Below, in pieces: positions 1 to 27,914 of a stretch of 27,914 nt of DNA. The first letter of the stretch is position 1. Every line of letters begins with the position of its first letter. The notes under the pieces are model-generated. The model worked only from the letters and a program-made list of their open reading frames with translations, was not told where the DNA came from and did no database searches. Source of the DNA: a virus (Duplodnaviria; Heunggongvirae; Uroviricota; Caudoviricetes); the IMG/VR virus record IMGVR_UViG_2913118216_000009. One strand, given 5' to 3'. A program made the translations under genes and the position numbers.

Positions 1-597
1 ATGAGTAACAACAAAAAGTCGCATTATGAGGATATGAAGAAGTTGTTGTGCGCGGACATACTGCACAGTAGTAAAAAATTCTCCTGGAGGAGAATCATAC
101 TACGTTGCTGGAGACAACCCGGACACAGATTCATGTGTTGGTGGAGGATAGCGAATTGCCTTTACTGTCAGGGAGGGAAATCAAGTATTAAGTGGGCACG
201 AAGAATCCACCGGAGACTTGTTTCAAAATACAATACTGATATTGGATTGGGGGCACAGATCGGGGAAAAATTCAAAATTTATCACTTCGTTGGAATAGTC
301 ATTTGTCCCCAGGCTGTGATTGGCAAAAATGTTCGTATCCGACAAAACACAACGATTGGATTAAAAACAGTTGAAGGAATCAAAGCCATCAGGATCGGAG
401 ACAATGTCGAGATTGGTGCAAATTCATGCATCATCGGTGATGATCTGACCATTGGTGATAACGTGACAATTGGTGCTATGTCATTCGTTAACCGAAACAT
501 TCCTGCTAATAGTGTCTTTATAACCCGCAGAGCCGCACAACTACTACCGCTTGATACGCACTCCACCTCTAACTATTCTGAACAACACAACAAGTGA
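1..597 (+). CDS. Hexapeptide-repeat (left-handed beta-helix) O-acetyltransferase, CysE/WbbJ-like; probable moron or flanking host gene
   Basis: 198-aa ORF starting at window position 1; repeated [LIV]-G-x-x-x-x hexapeptides (IGDNVEIGANSCIIGDDLTIGDNVTIGAMSFV) and an N-terminal region resembling serine acetyltransferases; markedly AT-rich codon usage compared with neighbouring phage genes; convergent with the tail operon. Confidence 0.7.
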   Translation: MSNNKKSHYEDMKKLLCADILHSSKKFSWRRIILRCWRQPGHRFMCWWRIANCLYCQGGKSSIKWARRIHRRLVSKYNTDIGLGAQIGEKFKIYHFVGIVICPQAVIGKNVRIRQNTTIGLKTVEGIKAIRIGDNVEIGANSCIIGDDLTIGDNVTIGAMSFVNRNIPANSVFITRRAAQLLPLDTHSTSNYSEQHNK

Positions 598-6352: not shown

Positions 6353-7577
6353 TATTCACCGTCAGTGATTTCAGACGCGGCACGTCCAGTTCACTGGTAA
6401 TGTCTCCGAGCGAAAATGTCAGTGATTCCGTCTGTGCAAAGGTTTTATGAATTTCCCGCCCCAGTTGTGAAAATGAAAACCGTGAATATGGCCACGTCTT
6501 TCTGACGTCAAAATCAGCATTTTCACGAAAAGCGCAGCGGATAATGTTTTCAACGCCATCCTTCAGGCTTTTTCTTTCCTCATCGCTGAAATTATTCAGA
6601 TTCTCGACATAAACCGTAACGGCCAGATCGTGAAACGTTTCCGGCATGGGATAACAATGCATATCATCACCATGCCCGTGATGCCCCTGGGTGTTGATAT
6701 AGTCATTCACTGCATCCAAGAACGGTGCCGATGTCACCCCACTATCCAGCAATAGAAATGCGTTTGCTGTTCCAGGTCCCCTCGGTGCTTCATGCTCAAA
6801 GAAAATCCTATCGATACTCAACCCAGCAACGCTGGCGATCATTGAGCGATAAACCGCATCAGTGTGGTAATTCCCCACCAGATTGAACTGATTGCGACAA
6901 CGCTCGCGCAGTTCATCATCGCTCTCCTCGTCAGCTCCCGGCACGGTCAGCCAGTTTTCCTCACTGGCCACATGGCTGATACCACTGACCGCCACCGGCA
7001 GAATGCGGTAGTATCCAGGCGCAAGGTTATATGCGCCCCCGGTACCAGTGGCTTGCACCGGCAGTAATGCGCTGGCTGCACTGGAAGCGATCACCACATC
7101 TTCAGTGGTAGCCAGCTCATAAACTCGCCCGTTAATGCGTTCTGTCTGGATAACCGTCCCAGCTCTGACCGTCACAACAGCCTTTGTGTCTTCTTTGAAG
7201 AACCGAATTACCCCCTGTGCAGCGCTCGCCGGTTTTGCCGTGACGTTCACAGCCCAGGCCAGCAGACGCAACATGCTCCCGCTGGCCGTGGCCACAAACA
7301 TATTGGCCAGCACGGTTAACACCAGAACATCTTTAAGCCACATCACCGGGGCGGTCACAATGGCGGTGATTAATCGCCAGAACGGTGACATTCGGGATGT
7401 ATTGGTGATAATTCCCTCATCTGCTGCAATCGCATTAAAGCGTTCCCGCACTTCGGCTTCCGTTACCGGCATACCGCTGTCTTTCACCACGTCTTCAAAA
7501 TCAACCTGCGGTTTTTCCGTCATAAATCCACCTGCGCAGAGATCCCGCCAAAATCGTATGTGCTCGCGGTTACCCAC
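6339..7577 (-). CDS. Baseplate J-like protein (gp6 family); probable true start near 7523
   Basis: 412-aa ORF; size and position match Baseplate_J proteins; an internal Met (MTEKPQVDF) would give an ATGA-type overlap with the stop of the upstream gene. Confidence 0.65.
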   Translation of the reverse strand: MGNREHIRFWRDLCAGGFMTEKPQVDFEDVVKDSGMPVTEAEVRERFNAIAADEGIITNTSRMSPFWRLITAIVTAPVMWLKDVLVLTVLANMFVATASGSMLRLLAWAVNVTAKPASAAQGVIRFFKEDTKAVVTVRAGTVIQTERINGRVYELATTEDVVIASSAASALLPVQATGTGGAYNLAPGYYRILPVAVSGISHVASEENWLTVPGADEESDDELRERCRNQFNLVGNYHTDAVYRSMIASVAGLSIDRIFFEHEAPRGPGTANAFLLLDSGVTSAPFLDAVNDYINTQGHHGHGDDMHCYPMPETFHDLAVTVYVENLNNFSDEERKSLKDGVENIIRCAFRENADFDVRKTWPYSRFSFSQLGREIHKTFAQTESLTFSLGDITSELDVPRLKSLTVNIDNE

Positions 7578-25070: not shown

Positions 25071-25352
25071 TTACGCGTTAAGTGAAATATCACATTCACT
25101 TAAAGCCTGAATGGTTAGCGCGGCCATGTTGACCTCAACCAGGCCTTTCTTCTGCTTACCCTTAGGTTTAATGGGCAATTTCCCGTATTCGATCAGATTT
25201 CTGGCAGTTTCTTTGTTTGTACCAGTACGACGGCAATATTCGTCTAAAGGCAGGTAAGGTTCCGGTATGATGATTGTAATGCTCGGACGCATAAGGCAAA
25301 CTCCATTAGTCAACCTGTACGGTAATACAGGGCTGTAACTGTCAATATTCAC
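25071..25352 (-). CDS. Apl/Cox-like small DNA-binding protein (excisionase / switch regulator); probable start at internal ATG near 25292
   Basis: First gene of the operon divergent from the repressor; about 73 aa from the internal Met; basic helix-turn-helix-like segment (TGTNKETARNLIEYGKL). Confidence 0.5.
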   Translation of the reverse strand: MNIDSYSPVLPYRLTNGVCLMRPSITIIIPEPYLPLDEYCRRTGTNKETARNLIEYGKLPIKPKGKQKKGLVEVNMAALTIQALSECDISLNA

Positions 25353-25411
25353 TTAAACCTACAAAGCAGAGTTTAAACTCGCTTTGAGAAAGATTTCAAG
25401 GAAAAATTTTC
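25293..25411. promoter_or_regulatory. Lysis-lysogeny switch region (divergent promoters and candidate operators)
   Basis: About 120-bp region between divergent Apl-like and CI-like genes; contains inverted repeat CCTGTAC-N5-GTACAGG-like and duplicated TTTAAAC motifs. Confidence 0.45.
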
Positions 25412-25990
25412 GTGAAGCTACAAATTGAATTTTCTCATGGCGGATCAGAAGTCTTGGACAGAGTCATCCAGGCGTATGGTTTCAACACAAAATTAGCCCT
25501 GGCCGAACATCTTGATATAGCAAGTAGCAGCCTGGCTAATCGCTACAAGAGGGATTTTTTTCCAGCAGATATCGTTGTTAGATGCATGGCTGAAACGGGA
25601 GCAACTCTGGAATGGCTTGCGACTGGGCAAGGAAGAAAGTTTAACGATGACGAATTAGACATCATGAAACTGCCGCGTAAGAAGATTGTGGACGGAAAAC
25701 TCTATGATTCCGGTTTGCTAATGCTCGATAAGGTTACTTTTTTACCTGGTAAGCCTTTACCACAGAATCCAATCTGTGTGATTGACAACGCAATGCAGTA
25801 CATTGTTGATCAACACTTTCCCGAAGTTTACGACGATGATTGGTTAGTTGAAATTGAAGGAAAAACAAGTGTGAGAACCCTTACGCGCATCCCCGTAGGC
25901 AAAGTTCGAGTGAGTGGCGTTGGGATGGCATTTGATTGCGCTATCGAAGATATAAAAATTTTAGGTCGTATTATCTTAACTATAAAATAA
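25412..25990 (+). CDS. Immunity repressor, phage 186 CI type
   Basis: 192-aa ORF (GTG start with AAGGAAAAA Shine-Dalgarno), same length as 186 CI as I recall it; transcribed towards the integrase gene and divergent from the Apl/CII operon; no LexA/S24-type cleavage motif seen. Confidence 0.6.
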   Translation: MKLQIEFSHGGSEVLDRVIQAYGFNTKLALAEHLDIASSSLANRYKRDFFPADIVVRCMAETGATLEWLATGQGRKFNDDELDIMKLPRKKIVDGKLYDSGLLMLDKVTFLPGKPLPQNPICVIDNAMQYIVDQHFPEVYDDDWLVEIEGKTSVRTLTRIPVGKVRVSGVGMAFDCAIEDIKILGRIILTIK

Positions 25991-26004: not shown

Positions 26005-26574
26005 ATGATAGATTACAAGACTGCATCTAAAGACCAATTAAAAGTAGAAATGAAACGATTGTCTGCCGCTGTTTCAGATACGCCATTTGGTACAAAAAAA
26101 GAATTTTTTCATCTTCCCGAAGTTTTAAACACCGGCGAGGAACCGCTTGGCATAGTAAGCGGTATGATGGATGGCAACACCTGGTTAATAACTTTAACTA
26201 ACCAACGCGTTATCTTCCTCGATAAAGGGATGATATTTGGTGTTAAGCAGGTCGATATTAGCCTTCGTAACATTGTAAGCGTTGGCGGAAAGACTGGACT
26301 GATATTTGGTGAGATAATGATTTCAACAAGCGGACAGAATTACACCATAAAAAACGTTATAAAATCCTCCGTAATTCCTTTTACCAACCTTGTTAATGAG
26401 ACAAGGAATAGTCTGGACAAGCCACAAGTTATCACCGCTCCTACAAGCTCCAACGAAAAATCTTCATTTGATGATGTCATGGATAAAATTGAACGTTTGG
26501 CTGAAATGAAAGCAGAAGGCATTCTTACTGAAGAAGAATTTCAGCAGCAAAAACAACGCATTTTAAACAGCTAA
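26005..26574 (+). CDS. PH-domain plus SHOCT-domain protein (moron between repressor and integrase)
   Basis: ATG at about 26005 with AAGGAAAA Shine-Dalgarno; central region resembles bacterial PH (YdbS/YokE-like) domains; C-terminus IERLAEMKAEGILTEEEFQQQKQRIL matches the SHOCT motif; strongly AT-rich. Confidence 0.6.
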   Translation: MIDYKTASKDQLKVEMKRLSAAVSDTPFGTKKEFFHLPEVLNTGEEPLGIVSGMMDGNTWLITLTNQRVIFLDKGMIFGVKQVDISLRNIVSVGGKTGLIFGEIMISTSGQNYTIKNVIKSSVIPFTNLVNETRNSLDKPQVITAPTSSNEKSSFDDVMDKIERLAEMKAEGILTEEEFQQQKQRILNS

Positions 26575-26577
26575 GCT

Positions 26578-27618
26578 ATGTCTGTAAGAAAATTAACAAA
26601 TGGCCAGTGGATTGCCGATTTCTACACGGTGGATCGAAGCAATGGTAAAGCCGGTAAGCGTATTCGTAAAAAATTCGCTACAAAAGGCGAAGCCCTGGCC
26701 TACGAGAACTATACGCTTCAGCAAGTGGAGAACTCCCCCTGGCTTGGCGAGGGTAAAGACCTCCGTACTCTAAGCGACCTAATCAACATGTGGTACGAAC
26801 GCCACGGCGTAGCTTTGCGCAACGGTCAAAAGCGTAAAGACGCAATGACATGGGCGGCGGAGTGTATGGGATTCCCGCTGGCCACAGAGTTTAATGCTCA
26901 ACTGTTTACAGCATACCGCGCAAAAAGGCTTGATGGGCATTATGCCCGCACTAACAGAGTATCCAAGGTTTCCCCGAAAACAATGAACCTTGAACATGCT
27001 TACTTTCTGGCTATGTTCAATGAGCTTAAACGGATTGGAGAATGGTCAGCCCCTAACCCACTGGAAAACGTCAGACAGTATCGCACTGATGAAACCGAAA
27101 TGGCTTTCCTCACTGCTGAAGAAATTGATCGGCTTTTGCTGGAATGCAAACGCAGTAAAGTAAGTTACTTAGAGTTAGTAGTAAAAATTTGCCTGGCGAC
27201 CGGCGCAAGGTGGAATGAAGCGGCGACACTCAAAAGCTCCCAGATTGCTGGCGGAAAAGTCACCTTCATAAAAACAAAAGGGAAAAGGAACCGTACCATT
27301 CCCTTAGATGATGAACTTCTGGCTGAAATTTCGGAAACAAAAGGCGCTCTGTTTCCGAAGCCCTGCTATAACGCTTTTCGTTCCGCCCTGGAACGTGCAG
27401 GTATTGAATTGCCTTCTGGTCAGCTAACCCACGTATTACGCCATACATTTGCCAGCCACTTTATGATGAATGGCGGGAACATTCTGGTTCTGCAAAAAAT
27501 TCTCGGCCACGCTGACATCACTATGACAATGCGTTATGCCCATTTCGCCCCAAGCCACCTTGAAGATGCTATGCGACTTAACCCCTTAAAATGTCGCAAA
27601 AATGTCGCTGCAGCTTAG
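26578..27618 (+). CDS. int: Tyrosine integrase (P2/186 family site-specific recombinase)
   Basis: 346-aa ORF; C-terminal catalytic region HVLRHTFASHFMMNGGNILVLQKILGHADITMTMRYAHF with the conserved R...H-x-x-R...Y arrangement; located at the prophage end. Confidence 0.9.
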   Translation: MSVRKLTNGQWIADFYTVDRSNGKAGKRIRKKFATKGEALAYENYTLQQVENSPWLGEGKDLRTLSDLINMWYERHGVALRNGQKRKDAMTWAAECMGFPLATEFNAQLFTAYRAKRLDGHYARTNRVSKVSPKTMNLEHAYFLAMFNELKRIGEWSAPNPLENVRQYRTDETEMAFLTAEEIDRLLLECKRSKVSYLELVVKICLATGARWNEAATLKSSQIAGGKVTFIKTKGKRNRTIPLDDELLAEISETKGALFPKPCYNAFRSALERAGIELPSGQLTHVLRHTFASHFMMNGGNILVLQKILGHADITMTMRYAHFAPSHLEDAMRLNPLKCRKNVAAA

Positions 27619-27785
27619 AAATACTGCCGAATACTCACAGATATTAACTAACGTAACTTATTGATAACACTGTAAGTTATTGTTTTTCGTAGATAGTTGA
27701 TGCTTTATAATATAGCCTGTGCTATATCTGTATGTAATGCAATCATCCCTCATGGAACGACGGGATTAGCAAGTCAGGAGGTCTT
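27619..27785. other. Putative attP / prophage-host junction region
   Basis: AT-rich non-coding stretch directly downstream of int; direct repeats AACTTATTG / AAGTTATTG; an IHF-consensus match (TATCAATAAGTTA on the minus strand, about 27655-27667); small palindrome ATATAG..CTATAT. Confidence 0.35.
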
Positions 27786-27914
27786 ATGAATGAGTTCAAG
27801 AGGTGTATGCGCGTGTTTAGTCACTCTCCCTTTAAAGTACGCTTAATGCTGCTCTCGATGTTGTGCGATATGGTCAACAACAAACCGCAGCAAGATAAAC
27901 CTTCCGATAAATAG
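27786..27914 (+). CDS. Small ORF (about 42 aa) with strong ribosome-binding site; prophage moron or host flank
   Basis: AGGAGG about 6 nt upstream of the ATG; translation MNEFKRCMRVFSHSPFKVRLMLLSMLCDMVNNKPQQDKPSDK ends at the window edge; below the ORF-track length cutoff. Confidence 0.35.
   Translation: MNEFKRCMRVFSHSPFKVRLMLLSMLCDMVNNKPQQDKPSDK

Follow-up and report, generated by a model that had tools for sequence, protein, structure and literature searches.

The right-hand end of the viral record IMGVR_UViG_2913118216_000009, a 27,914-nucleotide stretch of tailed-phage DNA that we refer to in its entirety as the window, raises the question of where the phage stops and its bacterial host begins. 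An integrase gene (int) is followed there by an AT-rich region and then by a small open reading frame (ORF) at the very edge of the window, and the initial annotation took the region to be a putative phage attachment site (attP), offering two origins for the ORF, host flank or phage cargo. The window is identical to part of contig VATT01000011.1 of assembly GCA_005781225.1, and this contig and related genomes were used to place the boundary. We conclude, with a probability that we put at about 0.9, that positions 27588–27914 represent attR, one of the two junctions of a ~30.5 kbp integrated prophage of the phage 186 type (Peduoviridae) inserted between mntR and mntS, two divergently oriented host genes. 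All of the features listed initially are present at, or a few bases from, the positions given for them, and the region is indeed the attachment region of the integrase; comparison of its core and flanks identifies it, however, as the phage/host hybrid of an integrated prophage rather than as attP.

The small ORF is real, and it does mark the prophage boundary. It begins with an ATG at 27786 on the plus strand, behind a Shine-Dalgarno AGGAGG at 27776–27781, and has 42 codons; because its stop codon occupies the final three bases of the window (27912–27914), it is complete and not cut. Both the annotation of matching Escherichia coli genomes and identity to K-12 show that 27786–27914 is mntS, the host gene for the 42-residue manganese-homeostasis protein MntS, the translation being the same as K-12 MntS at 42 of 42 residues. 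When 27500–27914 was compared with 5426 complete E. coli genomes, 5422 of them matched, with nearly all of the matches beginning at 27702 (query position 203), and the feature beneath the match is annotated as mntS in every matching genome, and also as rybA in K-12. From 27702 onwards the window and K-12 share 207 of 213 bases, and mntS with its leader is 97% identical. PF26599:MntS appears among the precomputed Pfam assignments for the source contig; a separate Pfam scan of the 42-residue sequence gave no match. In K-12 a 185-bp interval separates mntS from the divergently oriented mntR, and in the source contig mntS is followed by opgE, ompX, and rhtA. An ORF lying directly after int, with a strong ribosome-binding site and at the window edge, could be taken for a phage cargo gene (a moron), in which case the prophage would run past 27914; however, 5422 of the 5426 E. 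coli genomes, almost all without the prophage, have this ORF together with the 84 bases upstream of it, its product is identical to K-12 MntS, the next genes belong to the host, and a circular relative of the phage (see below) lacks the ORF, its core adjoining the other phage arm. We regard a phage origin as having next to no chance of being correct, the empty-site comparison in effect ruling it out, and of the two origins first proposed only host flank stands.

The position of the boundary follows from a three-way comparison of attL, attB, and attR. The core, TATAATATAG, occupies 27706–27715 (10 bp), and a second copy lies beside mntR, 30.5 kbp upstream, at L005 1232–1241 (L005 being the stretch of the source contig at the mntR-side prophage end, to which coordinates with this prefix refer). 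The unoccupied K-12 site holds TATAATATAG once. The junctions read TTTTAGCAATAGCTA-TATAATATAG-TTTAGCCAAAA in attL, TTTTAGCAATAGCTA-TATAATATAG-CCTGTGCTATAT in K-12 attB, and GATAGTTGATGCTT-TATAATATAG-CCTGTGCTATAT in attR (the window), such that attL equals attB to the left of the core, attR equals attB to its right, and the partners switch exactly at TATAATATAG. The breakpoints are therefore exact, and the junction expected in a prophage-free isogenic strain is GCTATATAATATAGCC. As measured by the two cores the prophage spans ~30,474 bp, over which the P2/186-type gene set is complete, and its boundary is now fixed to within 10 bp. It reaches 2.77 kbp to the left of the window, where attL sits, which is why TATAATATAG occurs only once within the window. 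Only 27588–27715 is phage attachment DNA, and host DNA starts at 27716; the AT-rich region is thus not wholly phage, as the match to 5422 of the 5426 E. coli genomes extends over 27716–27785, which contains the host mntS promoter, MntR-type operator, and leader. With the core repeated at the far end and only host genes (opgE, ompX, rhtA) beyond 27914, neither a missing partner core nor a continuing prophage, the two outcomes that the initial annotation named as contrary to its boundary, is found; the empty-site comparison that it proposed gives an unoccupied site in K-12 and in nearly all E. coli. No near-identical phage record was found, the sole match being one of 8% to Cronobacter phage ESSI-2.

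The int gene (26578–27618, plus strand) encodes a 346-residue tyrosine integrase of the phage 186 type, with Pfam matches to Int_N (5.8e-31) and Phage_integrase (3.7e-25) and an amino acid identity of 60.8% with the Int of phage 186 across 337 residues. Its translation contains the catalytic motifs HVLRH...GH...RY, and the attachment region is thus adjoined by a recombinase of the arm-binding type, with Int_N, Phage_integrase, and the HxxR...Y residues all present. The DNA that follows is AT-rich, as first described, the 87 bases at 27619–27705 having 30% G+C as compared to 50% for the whole window. The repeat that stands out most clearly lies just to the left of the region first annotated and was missed there: AAAATGTCGC occurs twice with 11-bp spacing at 27588–27608 (plus strand), within the 3′ end of int. 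The tandem TGTCKC-N5-TGTCKC is unique in the window (0.01 expected per window), and in a gap-free alignment of 14 arms (the window and 13 relatives) TGTCGC is invariant. A counterpart is present on the other side of the core, where the far arm carries AAATGTCTCAA/AAGTGTCTCAA (AARTGTCTCAA twice, 11-bp spacing) at L005 1321–1342; the far arms of E. coli relatives have TGTCGCA-ATAA-TGTCGCA or ATGTCGCAAAAATGTCGCA. These repeats thus flank the core on both sides and are unlike it in sequence, and direct repeats arranged in pairs to the left and right of the core are characteristic of arm-type Int sites among P2/186 phages (PMC3448106). A variant prophage at the same site in E. coli EC42405 (L002 3100–4260) is informative in this regard. 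A 193-residue cargo gene is inserted there downstream of int, and a second copy of ~120 bp from the int 3′ end, arm repeats included, has been retained beside the core, while the functional int copy is without the ATGTCGC pair. Because the duplicate no longer encodes the end of the integrase and yet has been kept, this argues that the ATGTCGC repeats are needed near the core as DNA and not as coding sequence.

Further landmarks are provided by phage 186, whose positions we carried over according to how far they lie from the crossover, with 2305 of 186 (in L089) set equal to window position 27706. In the same orientation after int, the 186 GenBank record has arm-type Int sites, five Apl sites, a DNase I footprint of integration host factor (IHF), and a predicted 7-bp crossover, past which there are a second IHF footprint, the lysogenic-operon terminator, and two more arm sites. 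The 186 arm-type sites fall at window ~27590–27623, on the ATGTCGC pair at 27588–27608; the five Apl sites fall at 27614–27660 and the IHF footprint at 27649–27678. Within the Apl interval, which in 186 extends from −92 to −46 relative to the crossover, are three direct repeats, AATACT, AATACT, and GATATT, at an exact 10-bp spacing (27620–27645, plus strand), and periodic ATAYTG repeats are present at the corresponding columns in relatives. By position, then, 27620–27645 probably contains Apl-type excisionase operators.

The two direct repeats that were reported initially, GTAACTTATTG at 27653–27663 and GTAAGTTATTG at 27672–27682 (both plus strand, 19 bp apart), are present as described, as is the match to the IHF consensus WATCAANNNNTTR on the minus strand at 27654–27666, which reads TATCAATAAGTTA and lies in the middle of 27649–27678, the interval that corresponds by position to the 186 footprint. 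IHF was a sensible call. On the minus strand the second repeat consists of an A-tract and, after it, a sequence that departs from the IHF consensus at one position; its ATTG is 23 nucleotides from the crossover in the window and in phage 186 alike. Two TAAsTyATTGwTTTT boxes are conserved in the gap-free alignment of 14 arms; in register, box 1 (27653–27663) has no mismatch to the IHF consensus in eight arms and two or fewer in the others, and box 2 (27672–27682) has 0–2 mismatches in 13 arms and four in the remaining one. The consensus positions are held across the aligned arms while the N positions vary. Direct repeats within an arm that are conserved among relatives, as GTAASTTATTG is, could also be integrase arm-type sites, as AACTTATTG/AAGTTATTG were initially taken to be, with the ATGTCGC repeats being mere coding sequence. 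Several observations make this improbable: GTAASTTATTG has no copy in the other arm, in contrast to the TGTC(G/T)C pairs, which, as is required of arm-type sites, occur on both; EC42405 retains its duplicated, ATGTCGC-bearing int end beside the core; by crossover distance the boxes lie on and beside the 186 IHF footprint; and what is conserved in them is the IHF consensus and not its N positions. We therefore conclude that the repeats reported first are IHF-type boxes, with binding predicted from their sequence and position, and that the ATGTCGC pair comprises the Int arm sites. A hairpin formed by the two boxes was also considered and rejected, as it offers weak A-U pairing before a U-run and its complementarity is not kept in relatives. 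A scan for a terminator between int and mntS found none, and the fold of this region is no better than that of shuffled sequences (z = +0.72). A 13-nucleotide inverted repeat, 85% complementary, connects the phage arm with the mntS leader (27632–27644/27724–27736, TACTCACAGATAT/ATATCTGTATGTA) and is probably due to chance.

On the host side, the core coincides with promoter elements of mntS. The rybA/mntS 5′ end is annotated in K-12 at position 853064, which corresponds to window 27719, and the TATAAT at 27706–27711 (plus strand), seven bases upstream of it and inside the core, is therefore the predicted −10 hexamer. The transcription start, leader, and Shine-Dalgarno sequence are all contained in the host segment 27716–27785 (plus strand). 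Over the start there is a 7-4-7 palindrome, ATATAGC-ctgt-GCTATAT (27709–27726), with the same layout as the K-12 mntH box, AACATAGC-aaag-GCTATGTT, and from this resemblance we infer a candidate MntR-type operator. In attB a second 7-4-7 box, TTTTAGC-aata-GCTATAT, lies directly upstream. A simple scan also finds a promoter-like match on the minus strand, ATTACA-18-TATATT (27738–27709), in the host part and directed into the prophage; the number of such matches is not above that in shuffled sequences.

Five points weigh against our interpretation of this junction or of its parts. The core is short, at 10 bp, so that the exact crossover inside it, TATAATA at 27706–27712, is only predicted. The position of the rybA 5′ end, and with it the promoter assignment, depends on the K-12 annotation. 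The candidate Apl repeats are unmatched in the prophage's own cI-apl switch region, as a k-mer comparison of the arm with 25290–25430 for an Apl repeat array found nothing more than TTAAA and AACCT in common, an unconvincing result. A single IHF consensus match is not above chance by itself, WATCAANNNNTTR having two matches in the window versus 1.37 expected, with 41 of 100 shuffles equal or better; it is the position and conservation of the match that give it weight. Finally, the circular contig with attP comes from a relative, not from the prophage in the window. This contig, IMGVR_UViG_2651870313_000001 (29,624 bp; L092/L108), has a 41-bp direct terminal repeat, TATAATATAGCTTTCGTTATCACACAAAAGACGCATAAACA, which begins with the att core; the copy at its end is preceded by the int arm, and the copy at its start is followed by the far arm with ATGTCGCAAAAATGTCGCA. 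In attL of IMGVR_UViG_3300029504_000022 (L099) the host mntR side is followed by this far arm as well. The 29,624-bp contig is thus a circular assembly with a joined attP, and provides direct evidence that the att system excises in a relative.

This bears on whether the junction still functions. The order of sites after int would be two arm-type Int sites, the 10-bp-spaced repeats, one or two IHF-type boxes, and the core TATAATATAG. By analogy with 186 and lambda-type integrases generally, Int would contact the arm sites through its N-terminal domain and the core through its core-binding and catalytic domains, with IHF bending the DNA between them and strands being exchanged within TATAATA. 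Integration would then restore the mntS −10 box and the start-proximal operator, with phage DNA replacing everything upstream of −13. Activity is unproven by sequence, and deleted remnants do exist at this site: L099 (7,442 bp) has attL at 67 and attR at 7353, with ~7.3 kbp between them containing int, cI, cII, and a few other genes, and is a deleted prophage at the mntR/mntS site. The prophage in the window could similarly be fixed in place as a dead relic whose junction no longer recombines, but we consider this improbable, as int is undamaged and retains its catalytic motifs, neither core and none of the four arm repeats is disrupted, the full P2/186-type gene set is present over 30.5 kbp, and a close relative is found as a circle with a joined attP. 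We regard the junction as an ordinary lambda/186-type attachment site; no description of a prophage at its target, mntS/mntR, was found in the searchable literature.

The choice of target suggests where this specificity may have come from. The initial annotation saw no tRNA gene, and ARAGORN found no tRNA or tmRNA and Rfam no family at its gathering threshold in the window (RybA would be cut by the window end in the Rfam scan). The window thus has no attachment site in a tRNA gene, but its relatives do, with tRNA-Ile2 or another tRNA in this place. The host target is a perfect 15-bp palindrome, GCTATAT-A-ATATAGC, and when read as GCTA/TATAATA/TAGC it has the stem, 7-base loop, and stem of an anticodon arm. 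The counterpart of TATAATA at 27706–27712 in the gap-free alignment with the 13 relatives is the anticodon loop of tRNA-Ile2 (another tRNA in one of them), CTCATAA, and the TAGCC that follows aligns with the 3′ anticodon stem, TCGCT. In phage 186 the predicted crossover is likewise CTCATAA, the anticodon loop of a truncated tRNA-Ile. Since the target shares the anticodon stem-loop geometry used by relatives of this integrase and by 186, the lineage appears to have been retargeted, and the most economical reading is that a tRNA-Ile2-targeting integrase of the 186 type came to use a look-alike promoter palindrome.

Identities within the integrase fit a change in core specificity on a conserved arm-binding platform. 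Relatives at mntS-type sites (E. coli 1919D3 and L008) are 78–81% identical to the window Int in the N-terminal domain, 95–96% in the core-binding domain, and 92–96% in the catalytic domain, while for tRNA-targeting relatives the corresponding values are 72–81%, 63–79%, and 56–74%. In its N-terminal domain the window Int is about as close to the one type as to the other. The mntS specificity seems to be confined to a small sublineage, because mntS is downstream of int in none of 80 Int relatives in species-representative genomes; the mntS-type sites are in complete E. coli genomes and in IMG/VR. It could be argued that the likeness to an anticodon stem-loop is a coincidence and that the integrase has no tRNA-targeting ancestor, as AGCTA-TATAATA-TAGCC and GGCGA-CTCATAA-TCGCT are identical at only 8 of 17 positions (counted by eye) and intergenic sites are common among P2-type integrases (PMC3448106). 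This seems unlikely, although less so than a relic junction, because tRNA genes are used by 186 and by all of the closest relatives whose downstream flank was read (63–79% amino acid identity), because those relatives share a colinear arm with the crossover at the same distance, and because the identity block in the window begins at the column of the first anticodon-loop base. If retargeting did occur, this would be a natural example in which the arm architecture was kept base for base while the core moved from a tRNA to a promoter, and would be useful for studies of specificity and for engineering of 186/P2-type integrases.

Placement of the crossover within the −10 box, between two candidate MntR-type boxes of the mntS promoter, raises the question of whether lysogeny influences manganese homeostasis. 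MntR represses mntS (PMC4361602, PMC9315381), and forced expression of MntS leads to higher intracellular manganese and to manganese sensitivity (PMC4361602). By sequence comparison, the mntS gene of a lysogen loses the upstream box together with its native upstream DNA. It also lies directly downstream of the lysogenic cI-int operon, which is transcribed constitutively, and because no terminator is predicted between int and mntS, and the terminator in 186 lies past the core, read-through of the cI-int transcript into mntS is plausible by analogy, although we consider it doubtful. Were it to occur, MntS would be made independently of MntR and, given the effects of forced MntS expression, lysogens would be expected to differ from non-lysogens in manganese handling. 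That integration rewires manganese homeostasis through a position effect on mntS is accordingly a tentative proposal, which we think is more likely wrong than right. The target nevertheless overlaps the −10 box and the repressor operator of mntS, overexpression of which is toxic under conditions of abundant manganese, and this makes it a candidate site at which a prophage could influence the metal physiology of its host through its position. At the other end, a copy of the mntS −10 box with the upstream box is left at attL, pointing into phage cargo genes. In the far arm before the cargo, L005 1406–1451 contains AGAGGTgaACCTCT, a terminator-like hairpin with TTGTTTG behind it, and, after these, a promoter-like TTGAAA-16-TGnGATAGT; these elements could insulate the cargo from the −10 copy and may also be the counterpart of the 186 lysogenic-operon terminator. 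The idea that the cargo is driven by the mntS promoter copy at attL is weakened by this hairpin and by the separate promoter-like site.

Prophages related to this one occupy the same site in 30 complete E. coli genomes (~0.6%). In strain 1919D3, the one of the 30 that was read, int is 87% identical at the DNA level and the core is 11 bp. The same attR is carried by 16 IMG/VR contigs and, because these include three distinct haplotypes of the mntS leader, this suggests that it occurs in several host lineages. The host of the window prophage itself appears to be a non-coli Escherichia, because the flanking genes opgE-ompX-rhtA (L007 5338–9041) are at most 89.6% identical to complete E. coli genomes. 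We note that mntS and its leader are 97% identical, and that the mntS promoter and leader are thus unusually conserved relative to this flank.

Between cI and int in the lysogenic operon there is a 189-residue ORF (26005–26574, plus strand) with bPH_3 and SHOCT domains, which the E. coli relatives do not have, their int following cI directly; it is probably a cargo gene expressed in the lysogen, and it has no PADLOC match. At the left prophage end, host mntR is followed by four cargo ORFs and then by the acetyltransferase gene that opens the window. The four ORFs (L005 1482–3822, window ~ −2518 to −178) encode a GHKL-ATPase-like protein of 297 residues, a DUF4325/STAS-like protein of 116 residues, a PIN-domain protein of 203 residues, and a 67-residue product, and are followed by the hexapeptide acetyltransferase gene at window 1–597. 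This could be a defence cassette, although searches of the cargo genes with defence-system models identified no system. For annotation purposes, the window misses the leftmost 2.8 kbp of the prophage, and mntS should not be annotated as phage cargo.

Among known systems the closest parallel is phage 186 (Eganvirus), whose attB is in ileY, the gene for tRNA-Ile2. The order and distances of sites from int to the crossover are alike, as are the arm repeats at 11-bp spacing, the helically spaced repeats (candidate excisionase sites here), the IHF-type site with ~23 nucleotides between it and a 7-bp crossover, and the two further repeats in the far arm; both also lack a cI-int operon terminator before the core, and the switch genes (CI, CII, and Fil) are of the 186 type. 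The differences are that the target here is the mntS promoter and not a tRNA gene, that the identity block is 10–11 bp as compared to 36 bp, that the arm repeat is ATGTCGC rather than RTGGCGR, that the arm sites overlap the coding end of int with no orf69 between, and that the candidate Apl operators differ in sequence. The site also resembles the class of attachment sites in tRNA anticodon loops, such as those of HP1 (tRNA-Leu) and 186 (tRNA-Ile). Crossover in that class falls within the 7-nucleotide anticodon loop, as the 186 annotation also indicates, and here too a 7-base crossover lies between short inverted repeats, GCTA-TATAATA-TAGC; however, the palindrome is a promoter/operator element and not an anticodon stem-loop.

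A second comparison is with P2-type intergenic sites, such as P2 locI and those of WPhi and PhiD145 (PMC3448106), where likewise a P2-like phage is inserted between protein genes using a short core with paired arm repeats on both sides. Arm consensus sequences are reported as tgTGGaCa for P2-type integrases and tgccGCCActt for the 186 type (PMC3448106), and the mntR/mntS site is not among the sites named in the text of that study. Unlike those sites, an intergenic target is combined here with an integrase and switch of the 186 type and with an arm motif of its own. The host part of the junction, lastly, is the same locus as mntS (rybA) of E. coli, with an identical MntS, a leader that is 97% identical, and a 7-4-7 palindrome resembling the mntH box. 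It differs from that locus in that the lysogen has phage DNA upstream of −13, replacing the box TTTTAGC-aata-GCTATAT, and in that mntR has been moved to a distance of 30.5 kbp.

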